Shown piece after piece: positions 1 through 35,620 of a stretch of 64,000 nucleotides of DNA. Every line of letters starts with the position of its first letter. Positions within the stretch are counted from its first letter, which is position 1. A program made the position numbers and the translations under genes. The notes beneath the pieces are model-generated. The model was given only the letters and a program-made list of their open reading frames with translations, had not been told where the DNA came from and searched no databases. This stretch comes from Escherichia coli (GTDB lineage: Bacteria; Pseudomonadota; Gammaproteobacteria; Enterobacterales; Enterobacteriaceae), in NCBI RefSeq assembly GCF_003018115.1, contig NZ_CP027457.1; one strand, written 5' to 3'.

Positions 1-291
1 ACTAAGCAGTGTTGGGATGATAATGCTGCGTGTTTTATAGAAACTGGCACCCAGTACCGCGAAGCCGACCAGCGTGGGCACGAAACGGCGTGTATCGTGC
101 ATCACTTCTGGTGCGGTAGAGACAACCAGCAGAGCGCATATCGAGGCGATGCCAATGGTGTCGAGCAAAATACCTACCGCGCCACGTTTGGTTGGGCGGG
201 CATTACCCACACGCAGGCGCAGCGGCAAATAGCGGAAGCAATAATTCGCTGCGCCAACCAGTAACCCAAGCAGCAGAACCTCATAGCTCAT
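1..291 (-). CDS. ygaH: AzlD-family small subunit of branched-chain amino-acid exporter (YgaH); 3' end cut by window edge
   Basis: Minus-strand frame from ATG at ~289-291 stays open to position 1 and reads [23 protein letters not shown]..., hydrophobic; start overlaps ygaZ stop. Absent from ORF track because it has no in-window stop. Confidence 0.7.
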
Positions 292-1018
292 CGGGCGCTC
301 CTTGCCAGAATGCCTGGATTAACGCAGTGAGGCAGCCACAGACAATGCCTGCCAGAATGGCGACGGGAATAGAAAATAGCGTTACGCCTGCAAGGGCACC
401 AACTAACGCTGCGGTAACGCAAAGAGATTGTTTGCGCTGGAAAGAGGCGAGCAGGAAACTCATAAAGAGTGCCGGAAGCATAAAACCTAATGCTGCTTCA
501 ACGGCGGGATAACCTTGCAGCAAGCCGCTGCCGGAGAATGCCCCTATTACCGTACCAAATACCCACGATGACCATGAACTGAAGGCAATGCCGATCATCC
601 AGTTCTCGCTCCAGCGGCGATTATTGCGTACCAGTTTTGCGGTGGCGGCGGCAAAAACCTCATCCGTCAGGCCAAACGCCCATAGGGCGGTTTTCGATTT
701 TTGCAGACGCTGAATAATACGGCTACGCAGTGACGGGCCATACAAAACATGGCGAACATCCATTGCCATGACGGTCAGTGCAGCAACCCACAAACTACTC
801 CCTGCTGCCAGCATCGCGGTAATGACGAACTGGCTCGCGCCTGCATAAATGATGCAGGAGAAAAAAACGCTTTCGAGAGGAGAGAATCCCAGACGGGTCG
901 CATTCAGACCGAACGCAAAGGCCACCGGAATATAACTAATAACAATCGGTAAACTGTCTTTGCATCCTTCCATGAAGGTCGCCGAACCAGGAGCAGGCTG
1001 TGGAGTAGGGCTTTCCAT
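281..1018 (-). CDS. ygaZ: AzlC-family branched-chain amino-acid (valine) exporter subunit
   Basis: 245-aa [24 protein letters not shown]..., multi-pass membrane protein; conserved position upstream of ygaH. Confidence 0.85.
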
Positions 1019-1141
1019 AGAGTGTACGCTTAACGATTGTTAATATTATAAATAGACTGAATGAATATCTTAACCTTATCAGACTGATGGGCTTCTTAAC
1101 ACCCTTATAAGTGTAAAGCCACGAAAACGGTTGCTGATTGC

Positions 1142-2326
1142 TTAATTTGCGGCTTCCTGACGATGAAAACCTCGCCACCAGACCAGTAAGTTAACCAGGG
1201 CAATCGTCGCGCCAGCCAGACAAACGCCAGCCCAACCGCCATGTTGCCAGGCTGAGGCTGAAATTAGCGAACCGGCGGCACCGCCAATAAAGTAGCTGGT
1301 CATGTAACCTGCGGTCAGGCGATTACGCGCATCAGGGTGTATTCGATAAATTACCGTCTGGTTAGTGATATGCACGCCCTGAACGGTGAGATCCAGCACC
1401 AGGATTCCGATAATCAACGCCAGTACGGAAGTGTGACCAAACCAGATCGCCAGCCATGAAAGTAATAGCAGCAGCAGACCGAAAGTTGTGGTGTGGTGCG
1501 ATTTGCCCTTATCGGCAAAACCGCCCGCCGGACGAGCGCCCAACGCTCCGGCAGCTCCCGCAAGTCCAAACAGACCAATTACACCATCGCTGTAGTTAAA
1601 AGGTGGAGCGGCAAGCAAAAAGGCCATTGAGGTCCAGAGAATGCTGAAATTGGCAAAGGTCAGGCAGCCCAGCAACGCGCGGGTACGCAGAATTTTATCG
1701 CTGATAAACATACTGAAAACGGAACCCAACAACTGTGGGTAGTTGAGGTGGGTTTCTGATTTCATTTGTGGCAGACCACGCCATAATGCCAGCGCCATCA
1801 GTGCCATTAACACCGAGGCAACCCAAAAGACGGTGCGCCAGCCGCCGAGATTCGCCAGCAATCCGGCAACGGTCCGTGCGAGTAAGATCCCCAACAGCAG
1901 ACCGCTCATAATAGTGCCAACCACTTTGCCGCGTTTGTCCGGTGAAGCCAGCGTCGCTGCCAGTGGAACCAGAATTTGTGCCACGACTGAGAATAAACCG
2001 GTTAATGCCGTACCGAGGATCATCATCGCCAGCGACTGACTGCTGGCAGTGATTAACATGCCGCCTGCCGCCAGTAAGGTCATCGAGACAATCAGGCGGC
2101 GGCGTTCAAACATATCACCGAGGGGAACAAGAAACAGTAGACCTGCGGCATAGCCCAACTGCGCGGCGGTAACAATAAAGCCTGCCGAACTGGCGGAAAG
2201 GGAAAAGTTACGCGCGATGGTGTCGAGCAATGGCTGGGCGTAATAATTACTGGCTACCGCCAGACCGGTGGCGATAGACATCAGCACGATCAGCGCCGGG
2301 CTAAGCTCATGATTAGGTTTGGTCAT
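1142..2326 (-). CDS. ygaY: MFS-family transporter, intact 394 aa
   Basis: 394-aa ORF with 12-TM-like hydrophobic profile and MFS-type motifs; sits between ygaZ and proX. Confidence 0.75.
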   Translation of the reverse strand: MTKPNHELSPALIVLMSIATGLAVASNYYAQPLLDTIARNFSLSASSAGFIVTAAQLGYAAGLLFLVPLGDMFERRRLIVSMTLLAAGGMLITASSQSLAMMILGTALTGLFSVVAQILVPLAATLASPDKRGKVVGTIMSGLLLGILLARTVAGLLANLGGWRTVFWVASVLMALMALALWRGLPQMKSETHLNYPQLLGSVFSMFISDKILRTRALLGCLTFANFSILWTSMAFLLAAPPFNYSDGVIGLFGLAGAAGALGARPAGGFADKGKSHHTTTFGLLLLLLSWLAIWFGHTSVLALIIGILVLDLTVQGVHITNQTVIYRIHPDARNRLTAGYMTSYFIGGAAGSLISASAWQHGGWAGVCLAGATIALVNLLVWWRGFHRQEAAN

Positions 2327-2428
2327 TATTTTTGTTCATCAGGTGATGATTAAGCTGGAAATCAATAATAGCGGATGTTGATGAATATGGGATGAAAGAT
2401 AGATTGTTGAAATGTGCGATGTGGTTTG

Positions 2429-2465
2429 TAGGCATGATAGGACGCGTTAGCGTCGCATCAGGCAT
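2429..2465. repeat. REP (repetitive extragenic palindromic) element
   Basis: gtaggcatgataggacgcgttagcgtcgcatcaggc is an imperfect palindrome of the GCCTGATGCGACGC REP type, in the ygaY-proX intergenic space. Confidence 0.6.
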
Positions 2466-2517
2466 TGTGTACAGAGCGGCGGATGAGGCAAAAACGCCTA
2501 ATCCGCCCGAATAAAAA

Positions 2518-3510
2518 TTACTTCTGCGCTGCCAGCGCCTCATTCACCCAGCCATCGAACTGCTGCTGGTGGGCTTTGATCCAGCCATCAACATGGCCCT
2601 GAATATCGCCTTCTGAGGCTTTGCCGTCATGCATAATGGCGTTCTGGGCGTTAATATCTGCCACTGGCAACTGCATAATGGCAAACAGTTTCGCTGCTGC
2701 CGGGTTTTTCTCGGCCCAGGCTTTATTGGCAACGATATGCATGGTGCTGACCGGGAAGCCGTAATTCGCGCCATTCGGCAGTTTGGTATCGGCATTTTTA
2801 TCGCCCGGCAGTGCAGAGAACGGCACCTGCAACCAGACCACATCTTTCCCTGGCTTCAGCTCATTACTCACCCAGTACGGCGTCCAGGTGTAGTAAAACA
2901 CCGGTTTGCCCTCTTTGTAACGACTGATGGTGTCAGCCATCATCGCCGCGTAGTTCCCCTGATTATGCGTCACGGTATTGGTCAGTTCATACGCGGCAAG
3001 CTGGTGGTTGATCGCACCTTCGCAGCCCCAGCCAGGGTTACAGCCAGTCAAATCCGCTTTACCGTCGCCGTTGGTATCGAACAGTTTGGCGATCTTCGGA
3101 TCTTTCAGTTGTGCGATGTTGGTGATTTTGTACTGGTCGGCGGTTTTCTTATCGATCAGGTAACCCTGTGCCGCGCCGTTAACAAATACCCCTTCACGAT
3201 AAAATTTCTTATCGCCACCGGCAGCTTCGTACATGTTGTCATGCAGTGGCGTCCAGTTCACGGCGGTGAAGGTTGCATCGCCGGAAGCAAGCGAGGTGTA
3301 GCCAACGTTGTAATCCACTTCGCTGGGTTTATTGACGGTATAACCTAATTTCTCCAGCGCACGACTGACCAGCAGTGTCTGGAAGGTTTCTTCGGTGATG
3401 GTGCTTTGAACTGGATTAACAGTAATGCCTTTGCCCGGCAGATCGGCAGCAAAAGTTTGTGTAGAGATAAGCGTGGCAAACGCTGTCGCAAAAAGTACGC
3501 TATGTCGCAT
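2518..3510 (-). CDS. proX: Glycine betaine/proline ABC transporter periplasmic binding protein
   Basis: ORF 2518..3558; likely start [21 protein letters not shown] (signal peptide) at 3510; ProX-like sequence; proVWX order. Confidence 0.9.
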
Positions 3511-3566
3511 TGTTATTCCTTTTTTTGGCAGGGTGATATGCCCGGCGTCACCGGGCAAGTGCAGAG

Positions 3567-4631
3567 TTACTTAATGAATGGGCGGGTCAGCAGACCGACA
3601 GGGCCAGTGGTGTACCAGCGACGGTTGCCGCGACTGCGTGAGTCGCGCCCAACGGCCTGCGTCAGGCGATCGAGGATAATGGCGAGGATCACAATCCCGA
3701 CGCCGCCAACGGTGGCAAGCCCCATATCCAGACGACCGATACCGCGAAGTACCATCTGACCCAGCCCGCCGACGGCAATCATCGAGGCAATGACCACCAT
3801 AGAAAGGGCCAGCATCAGCGTCTGGTTAACGCCCGCCATAATGGTCGGCATCGCCAGCGGTAACTGAACTTTGAACAGCATCTGGCGCGGGCTGGCACCG
3901 AATGAGCGCGAGGCTTCAATCAGATCCGCCGGAACCTGGTTAATCCCCAGAATGGTCAGACGGATAATCGGCGGCAGAGCAAAGATGATCGTCACCACCA
4001 CGCCCGGCACGTTACCGATACCAAACAGCATGACGATTGGCACCAGATAAACAAACGCTGGCGTGGTCTGCATGGCATCAAGCAGTGGACGAATAATTTT
4101 CGCCGCTCGTGGACTTCTCGCCAGCCAGATCCCCAACGGCAAACCGATGACGATACAGAACAGCAGGGCGGTTAACACCAGCGCCAGAGTCACCATTGCC
4201 TGCGACCAGGCACCGATTGCGCCGATGGCAATCAGCGAAACCAGCGTCGCCACACCCATTCCGACCCCGGAAATCTGCCAGGCGATGAGAGCGAAAACGA
4301 TAATCGCCACCGGTGCGGGCATACCCAGCAGCAATTGCTGGAAACCGTTGAGGATATAATCAACCGGAACGCGCACGCCCTGGAAGACGGGACGGAAATG
4401 GGTAACAACCCAGTCGATCCCTTCAGTGACCCAACTGTCGAGCGGGATCAGCGTTTTATGGAACGGATCGAGAATATTAAAATGCTCGACGTTTGGCGCA
4501 GGCGTACTGGTCAGCCAGTCAGCACCACCACCGTCAGTCGGTGCAGTCGCCGGTGTACCCCAGGCGTCTGCGGATTGCACGGCACTGTCCGCCGCTGGCG
4601 TGGTATCCCACGGATTATTTTGATCAGCCAT
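3567..4631 (-). CDS. proW: Glycine betaine/proline ABC transporter permease
   Basis: 354-aa ORF, hydrophilic N-terminus followed by ABC permease membrane domain; overlaps proV stop. Confidence 0.9.
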
Positions 4632-27525: not shown

Positions 27526-27906
27526 GGACGGAAGCTGTAAAAGTAAAATAATCTGCGATCTCAGATTTATTGAGTGATTTTTATGTGAGCAGAAGATATT
27601 CATCAGAAACGATTATGTAAATCATTTTATTTTGCCGACTGCCTGATTGTCGAAAGAAAAGAATACGCCCGTGTTTCCTGAATAGATTGACTTTTTTATC
27701 CAACCACACTTCAGCGCACTGCGTTTAAAAAATGCCTCATTCTTATGCGGAATATCATCATTTCATCATGATGTCTTTGATGAGCGGTGAACACAATACA
27801 CTTGCGCTGTCTCTTCAGGATGAATCCCCTGGTCTGGTGCCTGTGGGCTGATGTTGCAGCAAAGCTAAGGTCGCTTAAACGCTACTCAGTATTCACTTTT
27901 CAGAGG

Positions 27907-30900
27907 ATGAAATTTATGAACAGGACCAGTCCCCATTATTGTCGCCGCTCAGTACTTTCCTTATTGATATCTGCCCTGATATATGCCCCGCCCGGGATGG
28001 CGGCCTTTACTACTAATGTTATTGGTGTGGTAAACGATGAGACTGTAGATGGTGTCCAAAAAGTAGATGAACGAGGTACAACAAATAACACTCATATTAT
28101 CAACCATGGCCAGCAGAATGTTGAAGGCGGGGTATCCAATGGAAGTATTATTGAATCGGGTGGATATCAAGATGTAGGAAGGCATAATAATTTTGTGGGG
28201 CAGGCTAATAATACAACCATTAACGGGGGCAGACAGTCAATTCATGACGGGGGTATTTCCACAGGTACGACAATCGAGAGTGGCAATCAGGACGTTTATA
28301 CAGGTGGTATCAGCAATGGAACGACAATTAAGGGTGGTAATTCACACATAAGTGGGGGGACTGCGAATGGAACAATCATTGATGGTGGCAGCCAACGAGT
28401 AACAACTCAGGGGCATGTCGACAGTACAACGATAAATAAGTCTGGCTCTCAGGACATCACGCAAGGAAGTCTGGCAACGAACACAACCATAAATGGTGGT
28501 CGACAGTATGTTGAACAGAGCACAGTAGAAACAACAACCATTAAAAATGGCGGTGAGCAAAGAGTATATGAGAGCCGTGCGCTGGACACGACGATTGAAG
28601 GCGGAACTCAGTCTCTGAATAGTAAGTCAACGGCAAAAAATACGCAGATCTATTCTGGTGGCACGCAAATTGTTGATAACACCAGCACCTCGGATGTTAT
28701 TGAAGTTTATTCCGGTGGCGTGCTTGATGTTAGTGGTGGTACGGCAACAAATGTTACCCAGCACGATGGTGCAATTTTAAAAACAAACACTAACGGTACG
28801 ACGGTGAACGGTACGAATAGTGAAGGTGCATTCTCCATCCACAATCACGTGGCAGACAATGTGTTGCTGGAAAACGGTGGTCATTTAGACATAAACGCAT
28901 ATGGTTCGGCAAACAAGACGATTATCAAAGATAAAGGAACAATGTCAGTTTTAACCAATGCTAAAGCTGATGCGACCCGAATAGATAATGGCGGGGTTAT
29001 GGATGTTGCCGGAAACGCGACAAATACCATAATTAATGGTGGCACACAGAATATTAATAATTATGGCATAGCCACAGGCACTAATATCAACAGCGGAACG
29101 CAAAATATCAAAAGCGGCGGGAAAGCTGACACAACAATTATATCCTCCGGGAGCCGGCAGGTTGTTGAGAAAGATGGTACGGCAATTGGCAGCAATATTA
29201 GCGCCGGAGGCTCACTGATTGTCTATACCGGCGGTATTGCACATGGGGTTAACCAGGAGACGGGCAGTGCTTTAGTTGCCAACACGGGTGCAGGGACTGA
29301 TATCGAAGGATACAACAAGCTCTCTCACTTCACTATTACCGGAGGGGAGGCTAATTATGTTGTGCTGGAAAATACCGGCGAACTGACGGTAGTGGCTAAA
29401 ACCTCGGCGAAAAATACTACCATTGATGCTGGCGGTAAGCTGATTGTCCAGAAGGAGGCTAAAACAGATAGCACCAGACTTAATAATGGCGGCGTTCTGG
29501 AGGTTCAGGACGGTGGTGAGGCTAAGCATGTTGAGCAACAATCCGGCGGCGCATTAATTGCTTCCACGACCTCCGGAACACTTATCGAAGGAACCAACAG
29601 TTATGGTGATGCTTTCTACATCAGGAATTCAGAAGCTAAAAATGTAGTGCTGGAAAACGCTGGCTCATTAACAGTCGTCACTGGTTCCCGGGCAGTTGAC
29701 ACGATTATTAATGCCAACGGCAAAATGGATGTTTATGGAAAAGATGTTGGCACTGTACTCAATAGTGCTGGCACCCAAACAATATATGCCAGTGCCACTT
29801 CTGATAAAGCAAATATCAAAGGTGGCAAGCAAACGGTATATGGTTTAGCCACTGAAGCAAATATCGAAAGTGGTGAACAAATTGTTGATGGCGGGTCAAC
29901 AGAGAAAACACACATCAATGGTGGCACGCAAACCGTTCAGAATTATGGTAAGGCAATCAATACCGATATCGTCTCTGGCCTACAACAAATTATGGCAAAC
30001 GGGACAGCGGAAGGTTCCATTATTAATGGGGGTTCACAGGTAGTTAATGAGGGCGGTCTGGCTGAAAACTCGGTGCTTAATGACGGCGGCACACTCGATG
30101 TGCGGGAGAAAGGCAGCGCAACGGGGATACAGCAGAGTAGCCAGGGCGCTTTGGTTGCAACCACCAGGGCGACGCGGGTCACAGGAACACGCGCGGATGG
30201 CGTCGCGTTCAGCATCGAGCAGGGTGCGGCGAACAATATCCTGCTGGCAAATGGCGGCGTGTTAACCGTGGAGTCAGACACCACTTCCGCCAAAACACAG
30301 GTCAATACGGGCGGACGGGAGATCGTCAAAACAAAAGCCACTGCGACAGGCACGACGCTCACCGGCGGTGAACAAATTGTCGAGGGTGTGGCGAATGAGA
30401 CAACAATTAACGACGGCGGAATACAAACAGTTTCAGCTAACGGAGAGGCAATAAAAACAAAGATCAATGAAGGCGGAACGCTGACAGTCAACGATAATGG
30501 CAAAGCGACAGATATCGTCCAGAACAGCGGTGCCGCTCTCCAGACGAGCACGGCTGACGGTATTGAAATCAGCGGTACTCACCAGTACGGCACTTTTTCC
30601 ATTTCCGGCAATTTAGCGACCAATATGTTGCTGGAAAATGGCGGTAATTTATTGGTATTAGCAGGTACCGAAGCTCGCGACTCCACGGTTGGCAAGGGTG
30701 GGGCAATGCAAAACCTGGGTCAGGACTCCGCCACAAAGGTTAACTCTGGTGGGCAATATACCCTTGGGCGGTCAAAAGATGAGTTTCAGGCTCTGGCCCG
30801 GGCAGAAGATCTCCAGGTCGCTGGCGGGACGGCAATCGTCTACGCAGGTACGCTGGCGGATGCATCGGTCAGTGGCGCGACAGGAAGCCTGTCGTTAATG

Positions 30901-32502
30901 ACGCCACGGGATAATGTTACGCCAGTTAAACTCGAAGGGGCGGTCCGGATTACCGATAGCGCGACATTGACTCTGGGAAATGGCGTCGATACAACGCTTG
31001 CCGACCTGACGGCTGCCAGCCGGGGCAGTGTCTGGCTTAACAGCAATAATTCCTGTGCAGGCACCAGCAACTGCGAGTATAGAGTAAACAGTTTGCTACT
31101 TAACGACGGTAATGTTTATTTATCAGCACAAACAGCAGCGCCTGCCACAACTAACGGTATCTACAATACGCTGACAACCAATGAACTTTCCGGTAGCGGT
31201 AATTTCTACCTGCATACCAACGTTGCAGGCTCCCGGGGCGATCAACTGGTCGTCAACTACAACGCCACTGGTAATTTTAAAATCTTTGTTCAGGATACCG
31301 GCGTCAGCCCACAGTCTGACGACGCGATGACGCTGGTGAAAACAGGGGGAGGGGATGCTTCGTTTACGCTGGGCAATACCGGCGGTTTCGTTGATCTTGG
31401 GACCTATGAGTATGTCCTGAAAAGCGACGGCAACAGCAACTGGAACCTGACCAATGATGTCAAACCCAACCCGGACCCCAACCCAAATCCAAATCCGAAG
31501 CCAGACCCAAAACCCGATCCAACGCCAGACCCAAATCCAAAACCAGACCCGACTCCCGAGCCAACGCCGACACCCGTTCCGGAGAAACGCATCACGCCTT
31601 CTACCGCAGCCGTACTCAATATGGCAGCAACATTACCGTTGGTATTTGATGCTGAGCTAAACAGTATTCGCGAGCGGTTGAACATAATGAAAGCGAGTCC
31701 ACACAACAATAATGTCTGGGGGGCGACGTATAACACCCGTAATAATGTCACCACCGATGCGGGTGCCGGGTTTGAGCAGACGCTGACAGGAATGACAGTG
31801 GGGATCGACAGCCGTAATGATATTCCTGAAGGAATTGCCACGCTGGGCGCTTTTATTGGTTATTCCCATTCACATATCGGTTTTGATCGCGGAGGACATG
31901 GCAGTGTGGGCAGTTATTCTCTGGGCGGCTATGCCAGTTGGGAACATGAAAGTGGTTTCTATCTGGACGGTGTCGTGAAGCTGAACCGTTTTGAAAGTAA
32001 CGTAGCCGGTAAAATGAGCAGCGGTGGAGCCGCCAATGGCAGTTACCACAGCAACGGGCTGGGCGGTCACATTGAAACCGGGATGCGATTTACCGATGGT
32101 AACTGGAACCTGACGCCGTATGCATCGTTAACGGGGTTCACCGCTGATAACCCTGAATATCATTTATCCAATGGCATGGAATCGAAATCAGTCGATACCC
32201 GCAGTATATATCGTGAACTGGGTGCAACGCTGAGTTACAACATGCGTCTGGGGAACGGTATGGAAGTTGAGCCGTGGCTGAAGGCGGCTGTGCGCAAAGA
32301 ATTTGTCGATGATAACCGGGTGAAGGTGAATAATGACGGTAATTTCGTCAATGATTTGTCGGGCAGACGTGGAATATACCAGGCAGGTATTAAAGCCTCA
32401 TTCAGCAGTACGTTAAGCGGGCATCTCGGGGTGGGGTATAGCAACGGTGCCGATGTGGAATCCCCGTGGAACGCGGTGGCTGGTGTGAACTGGTCGTTCT
32501 GA
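27907..32502 (+). CDS. ypjA: AIDA/YpjA-type autotransporter adhesin
   Basis: Start MKFMNRTSPHYCRRSVLSLLISALIYAPPGMAA (signal peptide); glycine/threonine-rich repetitive passenger; proline-rich PNPDPNPNPNPKPDPKPDP linker; C-terminal beta-barrel ending ...AVAGVNWSF. Confidence 0.85.
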   Translation: MKFMNRTSPHYCRRSVLSLLISALIYAPPGMAAFTTNVIGVVNDETVDGVQKVDERGTTNNTHIINHGQQNVEGGVSNGSIIESGGYQDVGRHNNFVGQANNTTINGGRQSIHDGGISTGTTIESGNQDVYTGGISNGTTIKGGNSHISGGTANGTIIDGGSQRVTTQGHVDSTTINKSGSQDITQGSLATNTTINGGRQYVEQSTVETTTIKNGGEQRVYESRALDTTIEGGTQSLNSKSTAKNTQIYSGGTQIVDNTSTSDVIEVYSGGVLDVSGGTATNVTQHDGAILKTNTNGTTVNGTNSEGAFSIHNHVADNVLLENGGHLDINAYGSANKTIIKDKGTMSVLTNAKADATRIDNGGVMDVAGNATNTIINGGTQNINNYGIATGTNINSGTQNIKSGGKADTTIISSGSRQVVEKDGTAIGSNISAGGSLIVYTGGIAHGVNQETGSALVANTGAGTDIEGYNKLSHFTITGGEANYVVLENTGELTVVAKTSAKNTTIDAGGKLIVQKEAKTDSTRLNNGGVLEVQDGGEAKHVEQQSGGALIASTTSGTLIEGTNSYGDAFYIRNSEAKNVVLENAGSLTVVTGSRAVDTIINANGKMDVYGKDVGTVLNSAGTQTIYASATSDKANIKGGKQTVYGLATEANIESGEQIVDGGSTEKTHINGGTQTVQNYGKAINTDIVSGLQQIMANGTAEGSIINGGSQVVNEGGLAENSVLNDGGTLDVREKGSATGIQQSSQGALVATTRATRVTGTRADGVAFSIEQGAANNILLANGGVLTVESDTTSAKTQVNTGGREIVKTKATATGTTLTGGEQIVEGVANETTINDGGIQTVSANGEAIKTKINEGGTLTVNDNGKATDIVQNSGAALQTSTADGIEISGTHQYGTFSISGNLATNMLLENGGNLLVLAGTEARDSTVGKGGAMQNLGQDSATKVNSGGQYTLGRSKDEFQALARAEDLQVAGGTAIVYAGTLADASVSGATGSLSLMTPRDNVTPVKLEGAVRITDSATLTLGNGVDTTLADLTAASRGSVWLNSNNSCAGTSNCEYRVNSLLLNDGNVYLSAQTAAPATTNGIYNTLTTNELSGSGNFYLHTNVAGSRGDQLVVNYNATGNFKIFVQDTGVSPQSDDAMTLVKTGGGDASFTLGNTGGFVDLGTYEYVLKSDGNSNWNLTNDVKPNPDPNPNPNPKPDPKPDPTPDPNPKPDPTPEPTPTPVPEKRITPSTAAVLNMAATLPLVFDAELNSIRERLNIMKASPHNNNVWGATYNTRNNVTTDAGAGFEQTLTGMTVGIDSRNDIPEGIATLGAFIGYSHSHIGFDRGGHGSVGSYSLGGYASWEHESGFYLDGVVKLNRFESNVAGKMSSGGAANGSYHSNGLGGHIETGMRFTDGNWNLTPYASLTGFTADNPEYHLSNGMESKSVDTRSIYRELGATLSYNMRLGNGMEVEPWLKAAVRKEFVDDNRVKVNNDGNFVNDLSGRRGIYQAGIKASFSSTLSGHLGVGYSNGADVESPWNAVAGVNWSF

Positions 32503-32663: not shown

Positions 32664-32708
32664 GGTGGAGCTGGCGGGAGTTGAACCCGCGTCCGAAATT
32701 CCTACATA
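32664..32708 (-). repeat. tmRNA (ssrA) 3'-end-like sequence: prophage att core copy
   Basis: Minus strand reads gtaggaatttcggacgcgggttcaactcccgccagctccacca, i.e. the acceptor/T-arm end of tmRNA with CCA; no upstream tmRNA body, so this is a partial duplicate. Confidence 0.7.
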
Positions 32709-32792
32709 CCATTTTCACTATAATAAAAACATTAACTTGCGTTTAAAATCAGTAAGTTAGTATTATCTTGTGTTTGCTCGTTTTACTCATTT

Positions 32793-33839
32793 TTAATGCT
32801 CTGTCGCCAATCTGTCGCCATTGTAGGTCAACGAAGGTTGAGCCTTCCCTTTGTTTGTTATAATTTCATCAAAGATAGCTGGATTATTATCTTTCAGTAA
32901 TCTTGCTAGTATAATGATTTGCCCAGACGAGCCATCATCCTTGAATGAAAGGAAATTATCGGTAATATCAAGAATATCAATGGTAAATTTGAAGTAAGTT
33001 TCAATTGTATCGCCAAGCTCAATGCTGGACATGAAGTTAGTAACCATTTCATATCCATCAAAGTATAAAGTTGCATGTTCATTTAACTCCATTGGAGTTA
33101 GGCAAAGCATTCGATTAAGTTCGGATAAGTGTTTTTCTATTGAATGAAGAGATTGCATTTGACGGATTAAAACTTCGTCAAACTGAGAGCCATGATTAGA
33201 TGAATGTATCTTCTCTAGGTTTTTTAGTATATCAACCCAGTGATTATTCACTTCACGTATGTATTCTTTATCTGTATTTTTAGGCCGTCCCTTCTCTGGT
33301 GAGCTATTTATGAAAATATATCTATATAGATGTATTGGGTAGTTAATTTTATAACTTATCTCTTTAGTACCATAATGACGTTCGCGTTTAATGGTTTTGT
33401 TAGGTAAATTGGTGAAATAATCAGTAACGAACTTTAGATGGCTATAGTAGCTATCAGATAGATTCTTTTGCTTGGTTTCCTCAATTTGTCGGTTTGTTTG
33501 AACTGTGCGGTGTATGTTTGCTACGACAGCAACAAATGGTATGGACAAAGAAAGTAAGGCGATAGGAAGCTTGCTAATTGCAATGAAATTATTAAAGCCC
33601 TCACTATCAAATTGAGGGGAATGTCCAAGCCAGGAAAATATACCAAAGTATATCGCTGAAAATACAGGAATCCTAAGTGATTGTTTAAATAAGTATTGAC
33701 TTGTTAATGGCCTTTCATCCATGTTAAAGCCTTTTTTTGATACGCATAGATATAATTCAAGGCATATATATAAAAAATATATTATGATAAGTAAGTACGA
33801 TATCCATGGGTATTGTTGGATATAGTTATTAACAAACAC
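32793..33839 (-). CDS. Prophage cargo: uncharacterized membrane-anchored protein (348 aa)
   Basis: Very AT-rich ORF between att core and integrase; N-terminal hydrophobic helices (YLLIIIYFLYICLELYL, IPVFSAIYFGIFSWLG, LPIALLSLSIPFVAVVANI) followed by a soluble domain; start overlaps the integrase stop. Confidence 0.6.
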   Translation of the reverse strand: MFVNNYIQQYPWISYLLIIIYFLYICLELYLCVSKKGFNMDERPLTSQYLFKQSLRIPVFSAIYFGIFSWLGHSPQFDSEGFNNFIAISKLPIALLSLSIPFVAVVANIHRTVQTNRQIEETKQKNLSDSYYSHLKFVTDYFTNLPNKTIKRERHYGTKEISYKINYPIHLYRYIFINSSPEKGRPKNTDKEYIREVNNHWVDILKNLEKIHSSNHGSQFDEVLIRQMQSLHSIEKHLSELNRMLCLTPMELNEHATLYFDGYEMVTNFMSSIELGDTIETYFKFTIDILDITDNFLSFKDDGSSGQIIILARLLKDNNPAIFDEIITNKGKAQPSLTYNGDRLATEH

Positions 33840-34868
33840 TTTCTAATTTTCTCCATCCAAGGTTAGCAAGAGGATTTTTGGTTACAGCATCTTCCAGATG
33901 GTCGGGAGCGAAGTGGGCGTAAATCATTGTCATTTTTATATCGACATGGCCCAGAATATCGCGCAGCACCAGTATGTTTCCGCCATTCATCATAAAGTGA
34001 CTTGCAAATGTATGTCGTAATACGTGTGTGCATTGCCCTTCTGGTAGCTCGATGCCAGCTCGTTTTACCGCACGTTCAAAAGCTTTCCTACAAGGTGTAA
34101 ATAATTTTCCCCTATTCTTAGGCAGTTCTTCATATAAATCCTTTGAAATAGGCACTGTTCGGTTTTTCTTTCCTTTAGTCTTGGTATAAGTGATACGGTA
34201 TTTTGACACCTGATGACTCTGCAGGTTTTCGGCTTCGCTCCAGCGTGCGCCGGTGGCCAAGCATATTTTTGCAATCATCAGCAGACTGGGGCTTTGAGAA
34301 TCAGCACAGGCATCCAGCAGACGTTTAATTTCTTCCGGGGTCAGGAACGCCAATTCACCCTCAGCAATTTTAAATGTTGGCAGCCCAGCAAGCGGGTTGG
34401 GGGCTGCCAGTGGCCCAGCTTTTTCAGTGTACCAAAAACAGATGATAGGTTGCGCTGTTCAAGATTTACCGTGCGGGGCTTAACGGGCGACATAAGCGTG
34501 CCATCTTCATTTCGTACTTCACCTTTTAACCGTGCTTCGCGGTATTTCGTAAACTCACCAGCTGTCAGTTCTGAGGCGATGGGATCGCCTAGACCATTAC
34601 AGATAATTCTAAGTTTCGCCATGAGGCGCTTGGGGTCTGCGAGTGTTTGACCATACAGGGAATACCACAGCTCAATTAATTCTGATAGATGTCGCCGATC
34701 TTCCTTTTCCCCTAGCCATGGTTTTTTGTTCACTTCTTCCATTGTGAAGCTTTCAAACGCAATGGCTTCGCCTTTGGTAGCAAATTGCTTACGCACGCGC
34801 TTACCATTGCGTCCATTGGGATAGCACTCACACAACCATTTTCCGTTCGGCTGTTTTCTGATGGTCAT
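33829..34868 (-). pseudogene. int: P2/186-family tyrosine integrase, split by an apparent frameshift in a C-run (as assembled)
   Basis: N-terminal half (ORF 34341..34868, MTIRKQPNGKWLCECYPNGRNGKRVRKQF...) and C-terminal catalytic half (ORF 33829..34353, ...GARWSEA...HVLRHTFASHFMMNGG...LGHVDIKMTMIYAHF) are in different frames; frames meet at the G/C homopolymer near 34399-34403. Confidence 0.8.
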
Positions 34869-34871
34869 AAG

Positions 34872-35510
34872 TTAGAGGTTCTTGATTACTTTGACTGCAC
34901 GTCCTAGGACTTCCACATCATCTACAGAACATTCAAATGAAGTGTCATCTTGGTTAACTACTATTTTGTTTCCGGGTATGCGCGCAATTTTGACGATGCT
35001 TTTAACTCCGTCCATATCGACTAACCAGAAGCCATTACTGACTTGTTTAACAGACGTATCCACTACAAAGCTATCATTAGCTGTTTTAACAAATAAAGCG
35101 TTGGATGAGTCACCATCGAGCAGGCTGCTATCAAGAAGAATTTCATCACTTGGCTGCAGTTCGCCGTTCTTCAGTTCAACACGTTTGATGCTAGGAGCGA
35201 CGATCTTAGAAAGTGGTCTTACAGTGACAGGAGGTTCATTTTTGAGATTTGTTTCTTCGTTCTCACACGCATACATATCTCCTTGACCAGTAGCCAGCCA
35301 TAGAAGGGAAACTCCTGTTTCAAGGGCACATTGGATTACCCATTCGGCAGGAAAGCTATCCCTTAAGTATCTGTTAGCCATAGTGCTTTTTGATACTTCC
35401 AGATGTTCGCAGAGCTGCTGTCGTGAGCTGAAGTTGTAAGCCTTAATAAGCCTATTAATCGCATCGCGCCCACCACTATCATTCCCCGCCTTGATTAAAC
35501 TCATAATCAA
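34872..35510 (-). CDS. cI: Phage 186-type CI immunity repressor
   Basis: 212-aa ORF with N-terminal HTH and C-terminal region matching remembered 186 CI blocks (CALETGxxLxWLxTGxG, WLVDxxGxxSI, FECxxDDxxxLGR). Confidence 0.75.
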   Translation of the reverse strand: MIMSLIKAGNDSGGRDAINRLIKAYNFSSRQQLCEHLEVSKSTMANRYLRDSFPAEWVIQCALETGVSLLWLATGQGDMYACENEETNLKNEPPVTVRPLSKIVAPSIKRVELKNGELQPSDEILLDSSLLDGDSSNALFVKTANDSFVVDTSVKQVSNGFWLVDMDGVKSIVKIARIPGNKIVVNQDDTSFECSVDDVEVLGRAVKVIKNL

Positions 35511-35620
35511 ACCTCTTGATGTATATAAAAAGTGATCCTAATATCCATCCATGGTTTGAAAAGCAAAACCAAACCACATAAAACAAGATAAAACGAAACC
35601 AAACTAAGAGATACTGCACT
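35511..35620. promoter_or_regulatory. Divergent lysis/lysogeny promoter-operator region (pR/pL-like)
   Basis: Short AT-rich space between divergent cI and apl; individual operators not resolved. Confidence 0.45.

Follow-up and report, generated by a model that had tools for sequence, protein, structure and literature searches.

The window, a 64,000-nucleotide stretch of an Escherichia coli contig (NZ_CP027457.1), holds a protein-coding tract in which proline recurs at every second residue across 39 amino acids (PNPD...PTPVP). The gene that carries it is E. coli ypjA/ehaD, which encodes a classical (type Va) AIDA-type autotransporter, a surface adhesin. The mechanical ORF (27787..32502, + strand) opens at a GTG at 27787, and the ATG at 27916 (MNRTSPHYCRR...) agrees with the annotated start. 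The coding sequence and the features that matter here are:

27916..32502, + strand: ypjA/ehaD coding sequence, 1528 amino acids plus stop.
27916..28002, + strand: probable signal peptide of 29 amino acids, MNRTSPHYCRRSVLSLLISALIYAPPGMA, picked out by eye from the sequence.
31084..31452, + strand: Pertactin-like domain at the C-terminal end of the passenger, forming the final rungs of the beta-helix (Pfam PF03212, 152 bits, ORF residues 1100-1222).
31465..31581, + strand: Pro-X dipeptide tract of 39 amino acids, 20 of them proline (117 nt, ORF residues 1227-1265, PNPDPNPNPNPKPDPKPDPTPDPNPKPDPTPEPTPTPVP).
31597..31695, + strand: alpha-helix in the barrel pore (alpha-linker), an AlphaFold2 (AF2) helix at fragment residues 182-214, directly before the first barrel strand.
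31708..32496, + strand: 12-strand outer-membrane beta-barrel, the translocator domain (Pfam PF03797, 157.6 bits against a cut-off of 26 bits; TIGR01414, 327.8 bits against a cut-off of 16 bits).

High identity to K-12 ypjA and the same chromosomal locus identify the gene as the YpjA/EhaD ortholog. Over 1 kb around the tract its DNA is 97.5% identical to K-12 ypjA, and it is 99.9% identical to ypjA of strain F9792, whose locus, with ypjCB upstream and an annotated ypjA CDS of 4587 nt, matches the window at 99.96% identity across 7.3 kb. The ypjCB / pinH-remnant neighbourhood in the window supports the same assignment, and YpjA of K-12 (b2647; EhaD in O157:H7) shares this neighbourhood (ypjCB and a recombinase remnant), the domain order and the Pro-X linker site. 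The K-12 protein has 1526 amino acids (PMC13101318), two fewer than that of the window, as the difference between the two tracts predicts. The length used here for the signal peptide is that of the 29-amino-acid YpjA entry (YpjA-sp) in the same source (PMC13101318). The gene is known mainly as a biofilm-associated adhesin, and its structure and mechanism have not been the subject of published work (PMC9289746).

The original prediction of an autotransporter gene is borne out by ten stretches of AIDA-type passenger repeats (Pfam PF16168 AIDA, 471 bits) together with the Pertactin and Autotransporter beta-domain matches. The 12-strand barrel, the pore helix and a beta-helical passenger with AIDA repeats and a Pertactin-like C-terminal region are features of a classical (type Va) autotransporter of AIDA-I type, as is an N-terminal Sec signal peptide, which the first 29 residues resemble. 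We took the Pertactin-like domain (31084..31452) to be the autochaperone region; its PDB matches are the C-terminal portions of the P.69 pertactin and Vag8 passengers, and the AF2 model of the fragment (mean pLDDT 83.8) has beta strands continuing as far as fragment residue 134. The barrel strands occupy fragment residues 219-481, mostly at pLDDT>85, and the barrel is homologous to those of BrkA (3QQ2) and Vag8 (7AKV). The ITPSTAAVLNMAA...FDAEL motif of the pore helix is conserved and was found in all homologs compared. The tract itself (fragment residues 139-176) is modelled as coil with no DSSP secondary structure and pLDDT<50, a value that stands for no predicted fold and not for a polyproline-II (PPII) helix. 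It is the only low-confidence coil joining the last beta-helix strand to the pore alpha-helix and the 12-strand barrel. Because nothing else in the model connects the pore helix to the final beta-helix rung, its earlier description as a passenger-to-barrel linker is correct.

More than half of the prolines in the ORF translation (20 of 36) fall within the 39 residues of the tract. Proline frequency elsewhere is 1.0%, and at that background the probability that 20 specified positions are all proline is about 1e-40. The strict Pro-X alternation runs over tens of residues, with neither helix nor sheet in the model. The linker peptide had been quoted exactly at the outset, and the coordinates given with it (31461-31584) do contain the tract, overshooting it by 3-4 nt at either end. 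Two further candidates at this position were set aside: a Pfam Trypan_PARP match to the tract, which at 35.8 bits stays under its cut-off of 100 and is compositional and not homology, and an antisense ORF across it (31404..31841, 145 amino acids, GTG start), dismissed as a by-product of mechanical ORF calling where a GC-rich repeat lies within a well-supported gene.

The original prediction went on to describe near-perfect short tandem repeats in the DNA, prone to slipped-strand copy-number change, and here the evidence points the other way. The 19 hexamer units of the tract are of 12 different kinds, its proline codons alternate among CCA, CCC and CCG, no exact direct repeat in it is longer than 13 nt, its sole perfect tandem is CCAAAT x2, and TRF on the tract gave 64-82% matches. 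DNA self-identity at an offset of 6 was 0.59 in the tract; the remainder of the gene averages 0.26 and nowhere exceeds 0.37. Periodicity is perfect at the protein level but degenerate at the DNA level. The tract lacks the high unit-to-unit identity, with several perfect units, that marks a VNTR. As the DNA repeat is not near-perfect, it is a poor substrate for slippage.

The ypjA tract has one of three lengths, 35, 37 or 39 amino acids, among about 2,500 complete E. coli genomes, and its alleles differ by indels of 6 or 12 nt, each a whole number of units. At the ypjA locus, three spread samples (60 rows apiece) contained only spans of 289, 295 and 301 nt; these population counts combine BLAST identity bands with the 60-row samples, so that ypjA-locus alleles below about 1% frequency could be missed. 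Counted as records at least 99% identical to an allele over about 300 nt, the K-12-type allele occurs in 1,267 records, among them every K-12 derivative sampled, the MS14384-type allele in 459 (with another 324 at 95-99%) and the O157-type allele in 276 (with another 121 at 95-99%), all sampled O157:H7 carrying this one allele. The window-type allele is rare (19 records).

Compared with K-12, the window tract carries 6 additional nucleotides, one Pro-X unit, at CCAAAT-CCAAAT (39 against 37 amino acids), and three substitutions at X positions (I to N, K to T and D to E). It equals the O157 allele in length but differs from it in internal order. The O157 allele is itself 12 nt longer than those of SMS-3-5 and MS14384, the addition forming a perfect tandem of CCCAACCCAAAT x2, and the PEB21-38-A allele is 6 nt longer than that of K-12. 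A 298-nt span in O157 strain ERL06-2503 was considered as a 3-nt tract variant and rejected, the tract being the O157 allele and the difference lying in the flank. All proline positions are kept across eight ypjA alleles, with codons varying among CCA, CCC and CCG and the X position among N, D, K, T, E, I and A; the flanks of the tract are 91-97% identical in DNA between alleles. Strains thus differ in copy number by whole units, and an identical count in all related genomes, the outcome that was to speak against a variable stalk, is not what we found. The suggested variation in stalk length holds for the existence of these alleles, but not at the level of isolates, as length variation at ypjA is small (one or two Pro-X units), fixed by lineage and stable within lineages.

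Copy-number differences among clonal isolates were found only in a paralog that lies between ymgJ and minE. This protein of 1156 amino acids is also annotated 'ypjA' by PGAP, and K-12 keeps only a 344-nt barrel remnant of it. It shares with YpjA 78% protein identity over residues 578-1528, the layout of Pertactin domain, linker, helix and barrel, and the tail of the linker (...PDPTPEPTPTPVP), but has a shorter passenger and occupies another chromosomal locus. No NCBIfam model above its cut-off separates the two proteins, and Ag43, AIDA-I and BafA all fell under cut-off. Unlike that of ypjA, the paralog linker is nearly pure (Pro-Asn)n, 45-87 amino acids long, and its DNA is made of long perfect arrays of CCAAAT / CCGAAC, in which perfect period-6 stretches reach 93 nt. 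Among porcine ETEC, four isolates whose flanks are identical (3,085 + 3,099 nt) have paralog tracts of 79, 81 or 87 amino acids, and a fifth, identical upstream and over 800 nt downstream, has one of 85; the porcine ETEC tracts differ in their (ab)n and (a)n sub-arrays. The (Pro-Asn)n array of the paralog is a truly hypervariable repeat. Long alleles retrieved with the XJ34 query (spans of 319-445 nt) were considered as ypjA expansions and rejected, as all twelve sequenced examples sit between ymgJ and minE; XJ34 was assigned to the paralog by its CDS length of 3,471 nt. Because PGAP gives two loci the name "ypjA", comparisons of repeat number that do not separate them would wrongly make ypjA look hypervariable.

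The linker site can be followed in homologs, where conserved '...YEY.L...W.L' and 'ITPSTAAVLNMAA' anchors bound it. Citrobacter, Salmonella, Klebsiella, Erwinia, Leminorella and E. albertii have proline-rich low-complexity linkers of very different length and sequence there, and YejO homologs have the same autochaperone and helix motifs with the linker almost absent. Linker length in close relatives ranges from about 5 to 87 amino acids. The YejO-type homologs show that the linker is not needed for secretion, and any benefit of a spacer may be small.

We consider it probable that the tract is an extracellular spacer of YpjA/EhaD and an interrupted, 'frozen' microsatellite, not a contingency locus. 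Its prolines alternate with small residues that are polar or charged (N, D, K, T, E). Such a Pro-X sequence should be unable to form helix or sheet, and would most likely take the shape of an extended, fairly stiff, polyproline-II-like rod of roughly 12 nm at full extension. The rod would join the pore helix of the barrel to the beta-helical passenger at its C-terminal end, and may hold the adhesin clear of the outer membrane and the LPS layer. Constraint would then act on composition and periodicity only, leaving proline positions fixed and proline codons and X residues free.

Infrequent events that add or remove one or two 6-nt units, by replication slippage or by unequal recombination between short repeats, could have produced the three E. 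coli length classes of 35, 37 and 39 amino acids. Synonymous and X-position substitutions would have scrambled the repeat, so that it is now a poor slippage substrate and the allele is stable within a lineage. The uninterrupted (CCAAAT/CCGAAC)n of the paralog, which shifts in length between near-identical isolates, would show how the linker behaves when pure. As the ypjA length classes differ by 2-4 residues (about 0.6-1.2 nm), a difference unlikely to be functional, variation at ypjA may be neutral.

Pro-X tracts are thought to act as extended, distance-spanning rods in the (Glu-Pro)n/(Lys-Pro)n region of TonB and in trypanosome procyclin (EP/PARP); these resemble the YpjA tract in their alternation, but have no homology to it and a different cellular location. 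Bordetella pertactin has two variable proline-rich repeat regions, R1 and R2, for which a PPII stalk has been suggested, and R2 is unstructured and lies near the C-terminal end (PMC8931430). Like R1 (GGxxP)n and R2 (PQP)n, the YpjA tract is an in-frame proline-rich repeat in an autotransporter with a beta-helical passenger, its unit number varies among alleles and its copy number changes slowly, on the scale of lineages; YpjA also shares the Pertactin Pfam domain, just before the tract. However, the pertactin repeats are built of other unit sequences and loop out from the beta-helix, so that they are not what alone ties passenger to barrel. Pertactin also undergoes cleavage from its barrel, and studies have addressed the immunological relevance of its repeats. 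Another T5a autotransporter, Agrobacterium Aat (Atu5364), has a proline-rich linker from its barrel and alpha-helix to its beta-solenoid passenger, which has been proposed to stay unfolded and to extend the reach of the passenger (bioRxiv 10.1101/2022.02.15.480547). Aat is unrelated to YpjA beyond general T5a architecture, and the description of Aat drawn on here gives neither strict Pro-X alternation nor strain polymorphism. A literature search for ypjA with proline-rich gave no match. The tract is a known kind of spacer in a known gene, and an ordinary feature.

A more speculative extension, which we regard as rather unlikely, is that the linker site of this autotransporter subfamily works as a tunable 'stalk-length dial'. 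The paralog array would then be a contingency locus that resets projection from about 14 to 27 nm, to fit the thickness of O-antigen or capsule or to evade antibody, and synonymous scrambling of the repeat would have locked the ypjA dial at about 12 nm.

Much less probable is antigenic variation, with the tract as an exposed immunodominant epitope comparable to pertactin R1/R2, and with length and X-position changes selected for immune escape and not for spacing. The variety of X residues between flanks that are 91-97% identical, the predicted exposed and unstructured state of the tract, and the variation of pertactin's proline-rich repeats between alleles (PMC8931430) would fit such selection, but the ypjA alleles are few and old, being fixed by lineage, and the description of the gene mainly as a biofilm-associated adhesin (PMC9289746) also speaks against it.

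We find it similarly hard to credit, and give marginally less weight to, the idea that ypjA is an active contingency locus in which slipped-strand mispairing often alters stalk length within a lineage. Length alleles do exist, every indel is a multiple of the 6-nt unit, and the closely related linker of the paralog does behave in this way. Against this stand the degenerate repeat of the window, whose one perfect tandem has just 2 units, the constancy of a single allele through 1,267 records that include many independent K-12 laboratory derivatives and of another through all sampled O157:H7, and the presence of just three lengths in the spread samples. A secretion role, in which the non-folding tract forms the hairpin that starts translocation and keeps the C-terminal passenger unfolded in the periplasm, would suit a Pro-X sequence unable to fold prematurely, a modelled position immediately N-terminal to the pore helix, and the hairpin model of type Va secretion, where translocation begins just N-terminal to that helix, but is the least credible reading, given YejO homologs that retain the autochaperone and helix motifs with almost no linker and a range of linker lengths in close relatives that argues against a length-specific mechanistic role.

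For the window itself the finding matters little: the gene is an annotated E. coli adhesin, and proline-rich linkers between passenger and barrel are a recognised autotransporter feature. The ypjA tract is a lineage marker of 35, 37 or 39 amino acids and not a fast-changing one, and isolate-level phenotypic variation is not expected from it. The (Pro-Asn)n array of the paralog could serve for sub-typing, or for tests of whether adhesin stalk length matters. Should the dial reading prove true, ypjA and its paralog would be a case from nature in which interruption has switched a microsatellite off.

A 1-kb query around the proline-rich tract matched "ypjA: adhesin-like autotransporter YpjA/EhaD" in 2,565 records, with 99.9% identity to strain F9792 and 97.5% to K-12; the window is E. 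coli chromosome. The F9792 locus, the true ypjA locus with ypjCB and a recombinase remnant upstream, is 99.96% identical to the window over 7.3 kb. Translation likely starts at ATG 27916, in agreement with the annotated 1528-aa product; the mechanical ORF start (GTG 27787) lies 43 codons 5' of it. K-12 YpjA has 1526 aa and a 29-aa signal peptide (PMC13101318), and a review describes YpjA as a biofilm-forming adhesin near the self-associating autotransporters, with no published structural work (PMC9289746). The relevant features are as follows.

27787..32502, + strand: 4.7-kb ORF enclosing 31461-31584
31465 to 31581, + strand: strict Pro-X alternation (117 nt, 39 aa, 20 prolines)
Ten AIDA repeats (Pfam, 471 bits)
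ORF residues 1100-1222: Pertactin domain (Pfam)
ORF residues 1310-1549: autotransporter beta-domain (Pfam)

The passenger (27916-31083) also scores 231 bits against NCBIfam TIGR04415, the 'O_hepto_targRPT' strand-loop-strand repeat. This repeat type is heptosylated in AIDA-I and TibA. The match to F9792 ends 167 nt past the ypjA stop codon, and window positions 32669-38668 match, at ~97%, a prophage-like region in 33 genomes with genes for an integrase, CI and CII regulators and a DNA adenine methylase. Thus, a mobile element lies directly downstream of ypjA.

The peptide quoted in the original prediction, PNPDPNPNPNPKPDPKPDPTPDPNPKPDPTPEPTPTPVP, occurs exactly in the ORF translation, and the tract holds 20 of its 36 prolines. 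Since proline frequency is 1.0% elsewhere in the translation, the pattern is beyond chance (about 1e-40). At the DNA level, the tract had been described as near-perfect tandem repeats. Periodicity is real in the protein, and offset-6 DNA self-identity reaches 0.59, whereas equal-sized windows in the rest of the gene average 0.26 and do not exceed 0.37. However, the repeat is degenerate in DNA and "near-perfect" is an overstatement: the 19 hexamer units, each encoding one Pro-X dipeptide, are of 12 kinds, TRF matches are 64-82%, no exact direct repeat exceeds 13 nt, CCAAAT x2 is the sole perfect tandem, and proline codons alternate among CCA (10), CCC (5) and CCG (5). An antisense ORF over the tract (31404-31841, - strand, 145 aa, GTG start) was taken as a by-product of repeat composition.

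An AlphaFold2 model of the C-terminal 482 residues, built from an alignment of 29 homologs (mean pLDDT 83.8, pTM 0.76), bears out the assignment of the tract as passenger-to-barrel linker.

To fragment residue 134: beta-helix strands
Fragment residues 139-176: coil, pLDDT <50 (the Pro-X tract is 138-176)
Fragment residues 182-214: alpha-helix
Fragment residues 219-481: 12-strand barrel

In the model the tract is therefore the sole tether joining the folded passenger to the pore helix. By sequence, Vag8 (7AKV), the BrkA barrel (3QQ2) and the C-terminal end of P.69 pertactin come nearest among solved structures. Conserved anchors flank the linker site: "...YEY.L...W.L", which closes the Pertactin-like domain, lies upstream, and "ITPSTAAVLNMAA...FDAEL", which opens the helix region, lies downstream. 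Between these anchors, homologs from Citrobacter, Salmonella, Klebsiella, Erwinia, Leminorella and E. albertii carry proline-rich, acidic or polar low-complexity segments very different in length and sequence. YejO has almost no residues there; in its homologs P0023 and P0044 the Pertactin-like domain is joined near-directly to the ITPST... helix segment without a proline-rich linker, so the linker is an optional insertion in the subfamily. Together, linker variability and the near-empty YejO site indicate that the site behaves as a variable-length spacer rather than a conserved motif, and is dispensable for secretion as such.

It had been predicted that copy number could vary between isolates. 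A tract-spanning 301-nt query matched 2,525 records, and in three "spread" samples of 60 rows apiece the only spans at the ypjA locus were 289, 295 and 301 nt. Sequenced examples have these tract lengths:

35 aa: SMS-3-5, MS14384
37 aa: K-12
39 aa: window/F9792, O157:H7, O145, D7, PEB21-38-A

The count is therefore not identical everywhere, as expected under the original prediction, but the differences amount to one or two units and are fixed within lineages. One allele is common to every sampled K-12 laboratory derivative, and another to every sampled O157:H7. In identity bands over about 300 nt, the K-12 type accounted for 1,267 records at ≥99%, the MS14384 type for 459 (324 more at 95-99%), the O157 type for 276 (121 at 95-99%) and the window type for 19 at ≥99%. 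DNA alignment of sequenced alleles shows whole-unit indels: K-12 to window is +6 nt at CCAAAT-CCAAAT, SMS-3-5 to O157 is +12 nt as a perfect tandem CCCAACCCAAAT x2, and the PEB21-38-A tract matches the K-12 type with an extra Pro-Asp unit. Proline positions are kept in every allele, while proline codons and X residues vary. In strain 08-3918 (comparison locus L008:401-948), ypjA is truncated by an IS1203 (IS3-family) element inserted inside the tract or exactly at its end, and its reading frame ends ...PKPDPKPDPKPDPKPD*; the gene is annotated as a pseudogene in several other strains, including O145 RM11626 and PEB21-38-A.

The span in record XJ34 is 433 nt and encodes (Pro-Asn)n over 83 aa; used as query, it returned spans between 319 and 445 nt, with every length difference a multiple of 6. 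These were ruled out as ypjA alleles, as fetched neighbourhoods place them between ymgJ and minE, outside the window. There, a 1156-aa paralog (comparison loci L009-L019 and L007, for example L011:3086-3346) shares 78% identity with YpjA residues 578-1528; in K-12, nothing but a 344-nt barrel remnant is left at this position. A small CDS precedes the paralog, similar to the 120-nt hypothetical CDS annotated directly upstream of F9792 ypjA. The paralog linker (45-87 aa) is nearly pure (Pro-Asn)n, encoded by long perfect CCAAAT and CCGAAC arrays with perfect period-6 runs up to 93 nt. It measures 53 aa in O55:H7 DEC5B and 65 aa in O157 strain 493/89. Four porcine ETEC isolates with identical flanks (3,085 nt upstream, 3,099 nt downstream) have tracts of 79, 81 or 87 aa, and a fifth, identical upstream and over 800 nt downstream, has 85 aa; the length differences lie in how many (CCAAAT-CCGAAC) and (CCAAAT) units each isolate has. 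The paralog tract is thus a true hypervariable VNTR with hexamer units. From it one sees how the linker behaves when the DNA repeat is pure, and the ypjA tract behaves like its interrupted, stabilised counterpart.

An extended polyproline-II-like rod is the most likely conformation of the alternating Pro-X sequence. Such a rod rises about 0.31 nm per residue, and would span about 12 nm at 39 aa and about 27 nm at 87 aa. It may keep the beta-helical adhesin away from the LPS layer. Its length would change when replication slips or when repeat units exchange unequally. A preprint proposes the same role for a proline-rich linker in an autotransporter from Agrobacterium (bioRxiv 10.1101/2022.02.15.480547), and a PPII stalk was suggested for pertactin R2 (PMC8931430). 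We rank this spacer rod above three alternatives. Tract variation may possibly be antigenic. A secretion-hairpin role is less likely given that YejO lacks the linker and that linker length ranges over 5-87 aa among close relatives. An active contingency locus at ypjA is contradicted by allele stability.

The ypjA gene is already known, as are proline-rich linkers in autotransporters and polymorphic proline repeats. Our literature search turned up no paper on the YpjA tract polymorphism, which is a small point and of a type already familiar. Both loci are labelled "ypjA" by PGAP, and the shared name can mislead strain comparisons. Possibly worth a second look are the paralog's hypervariable (Pro-Asn)n linker and the annotation ambiguity that hides it.
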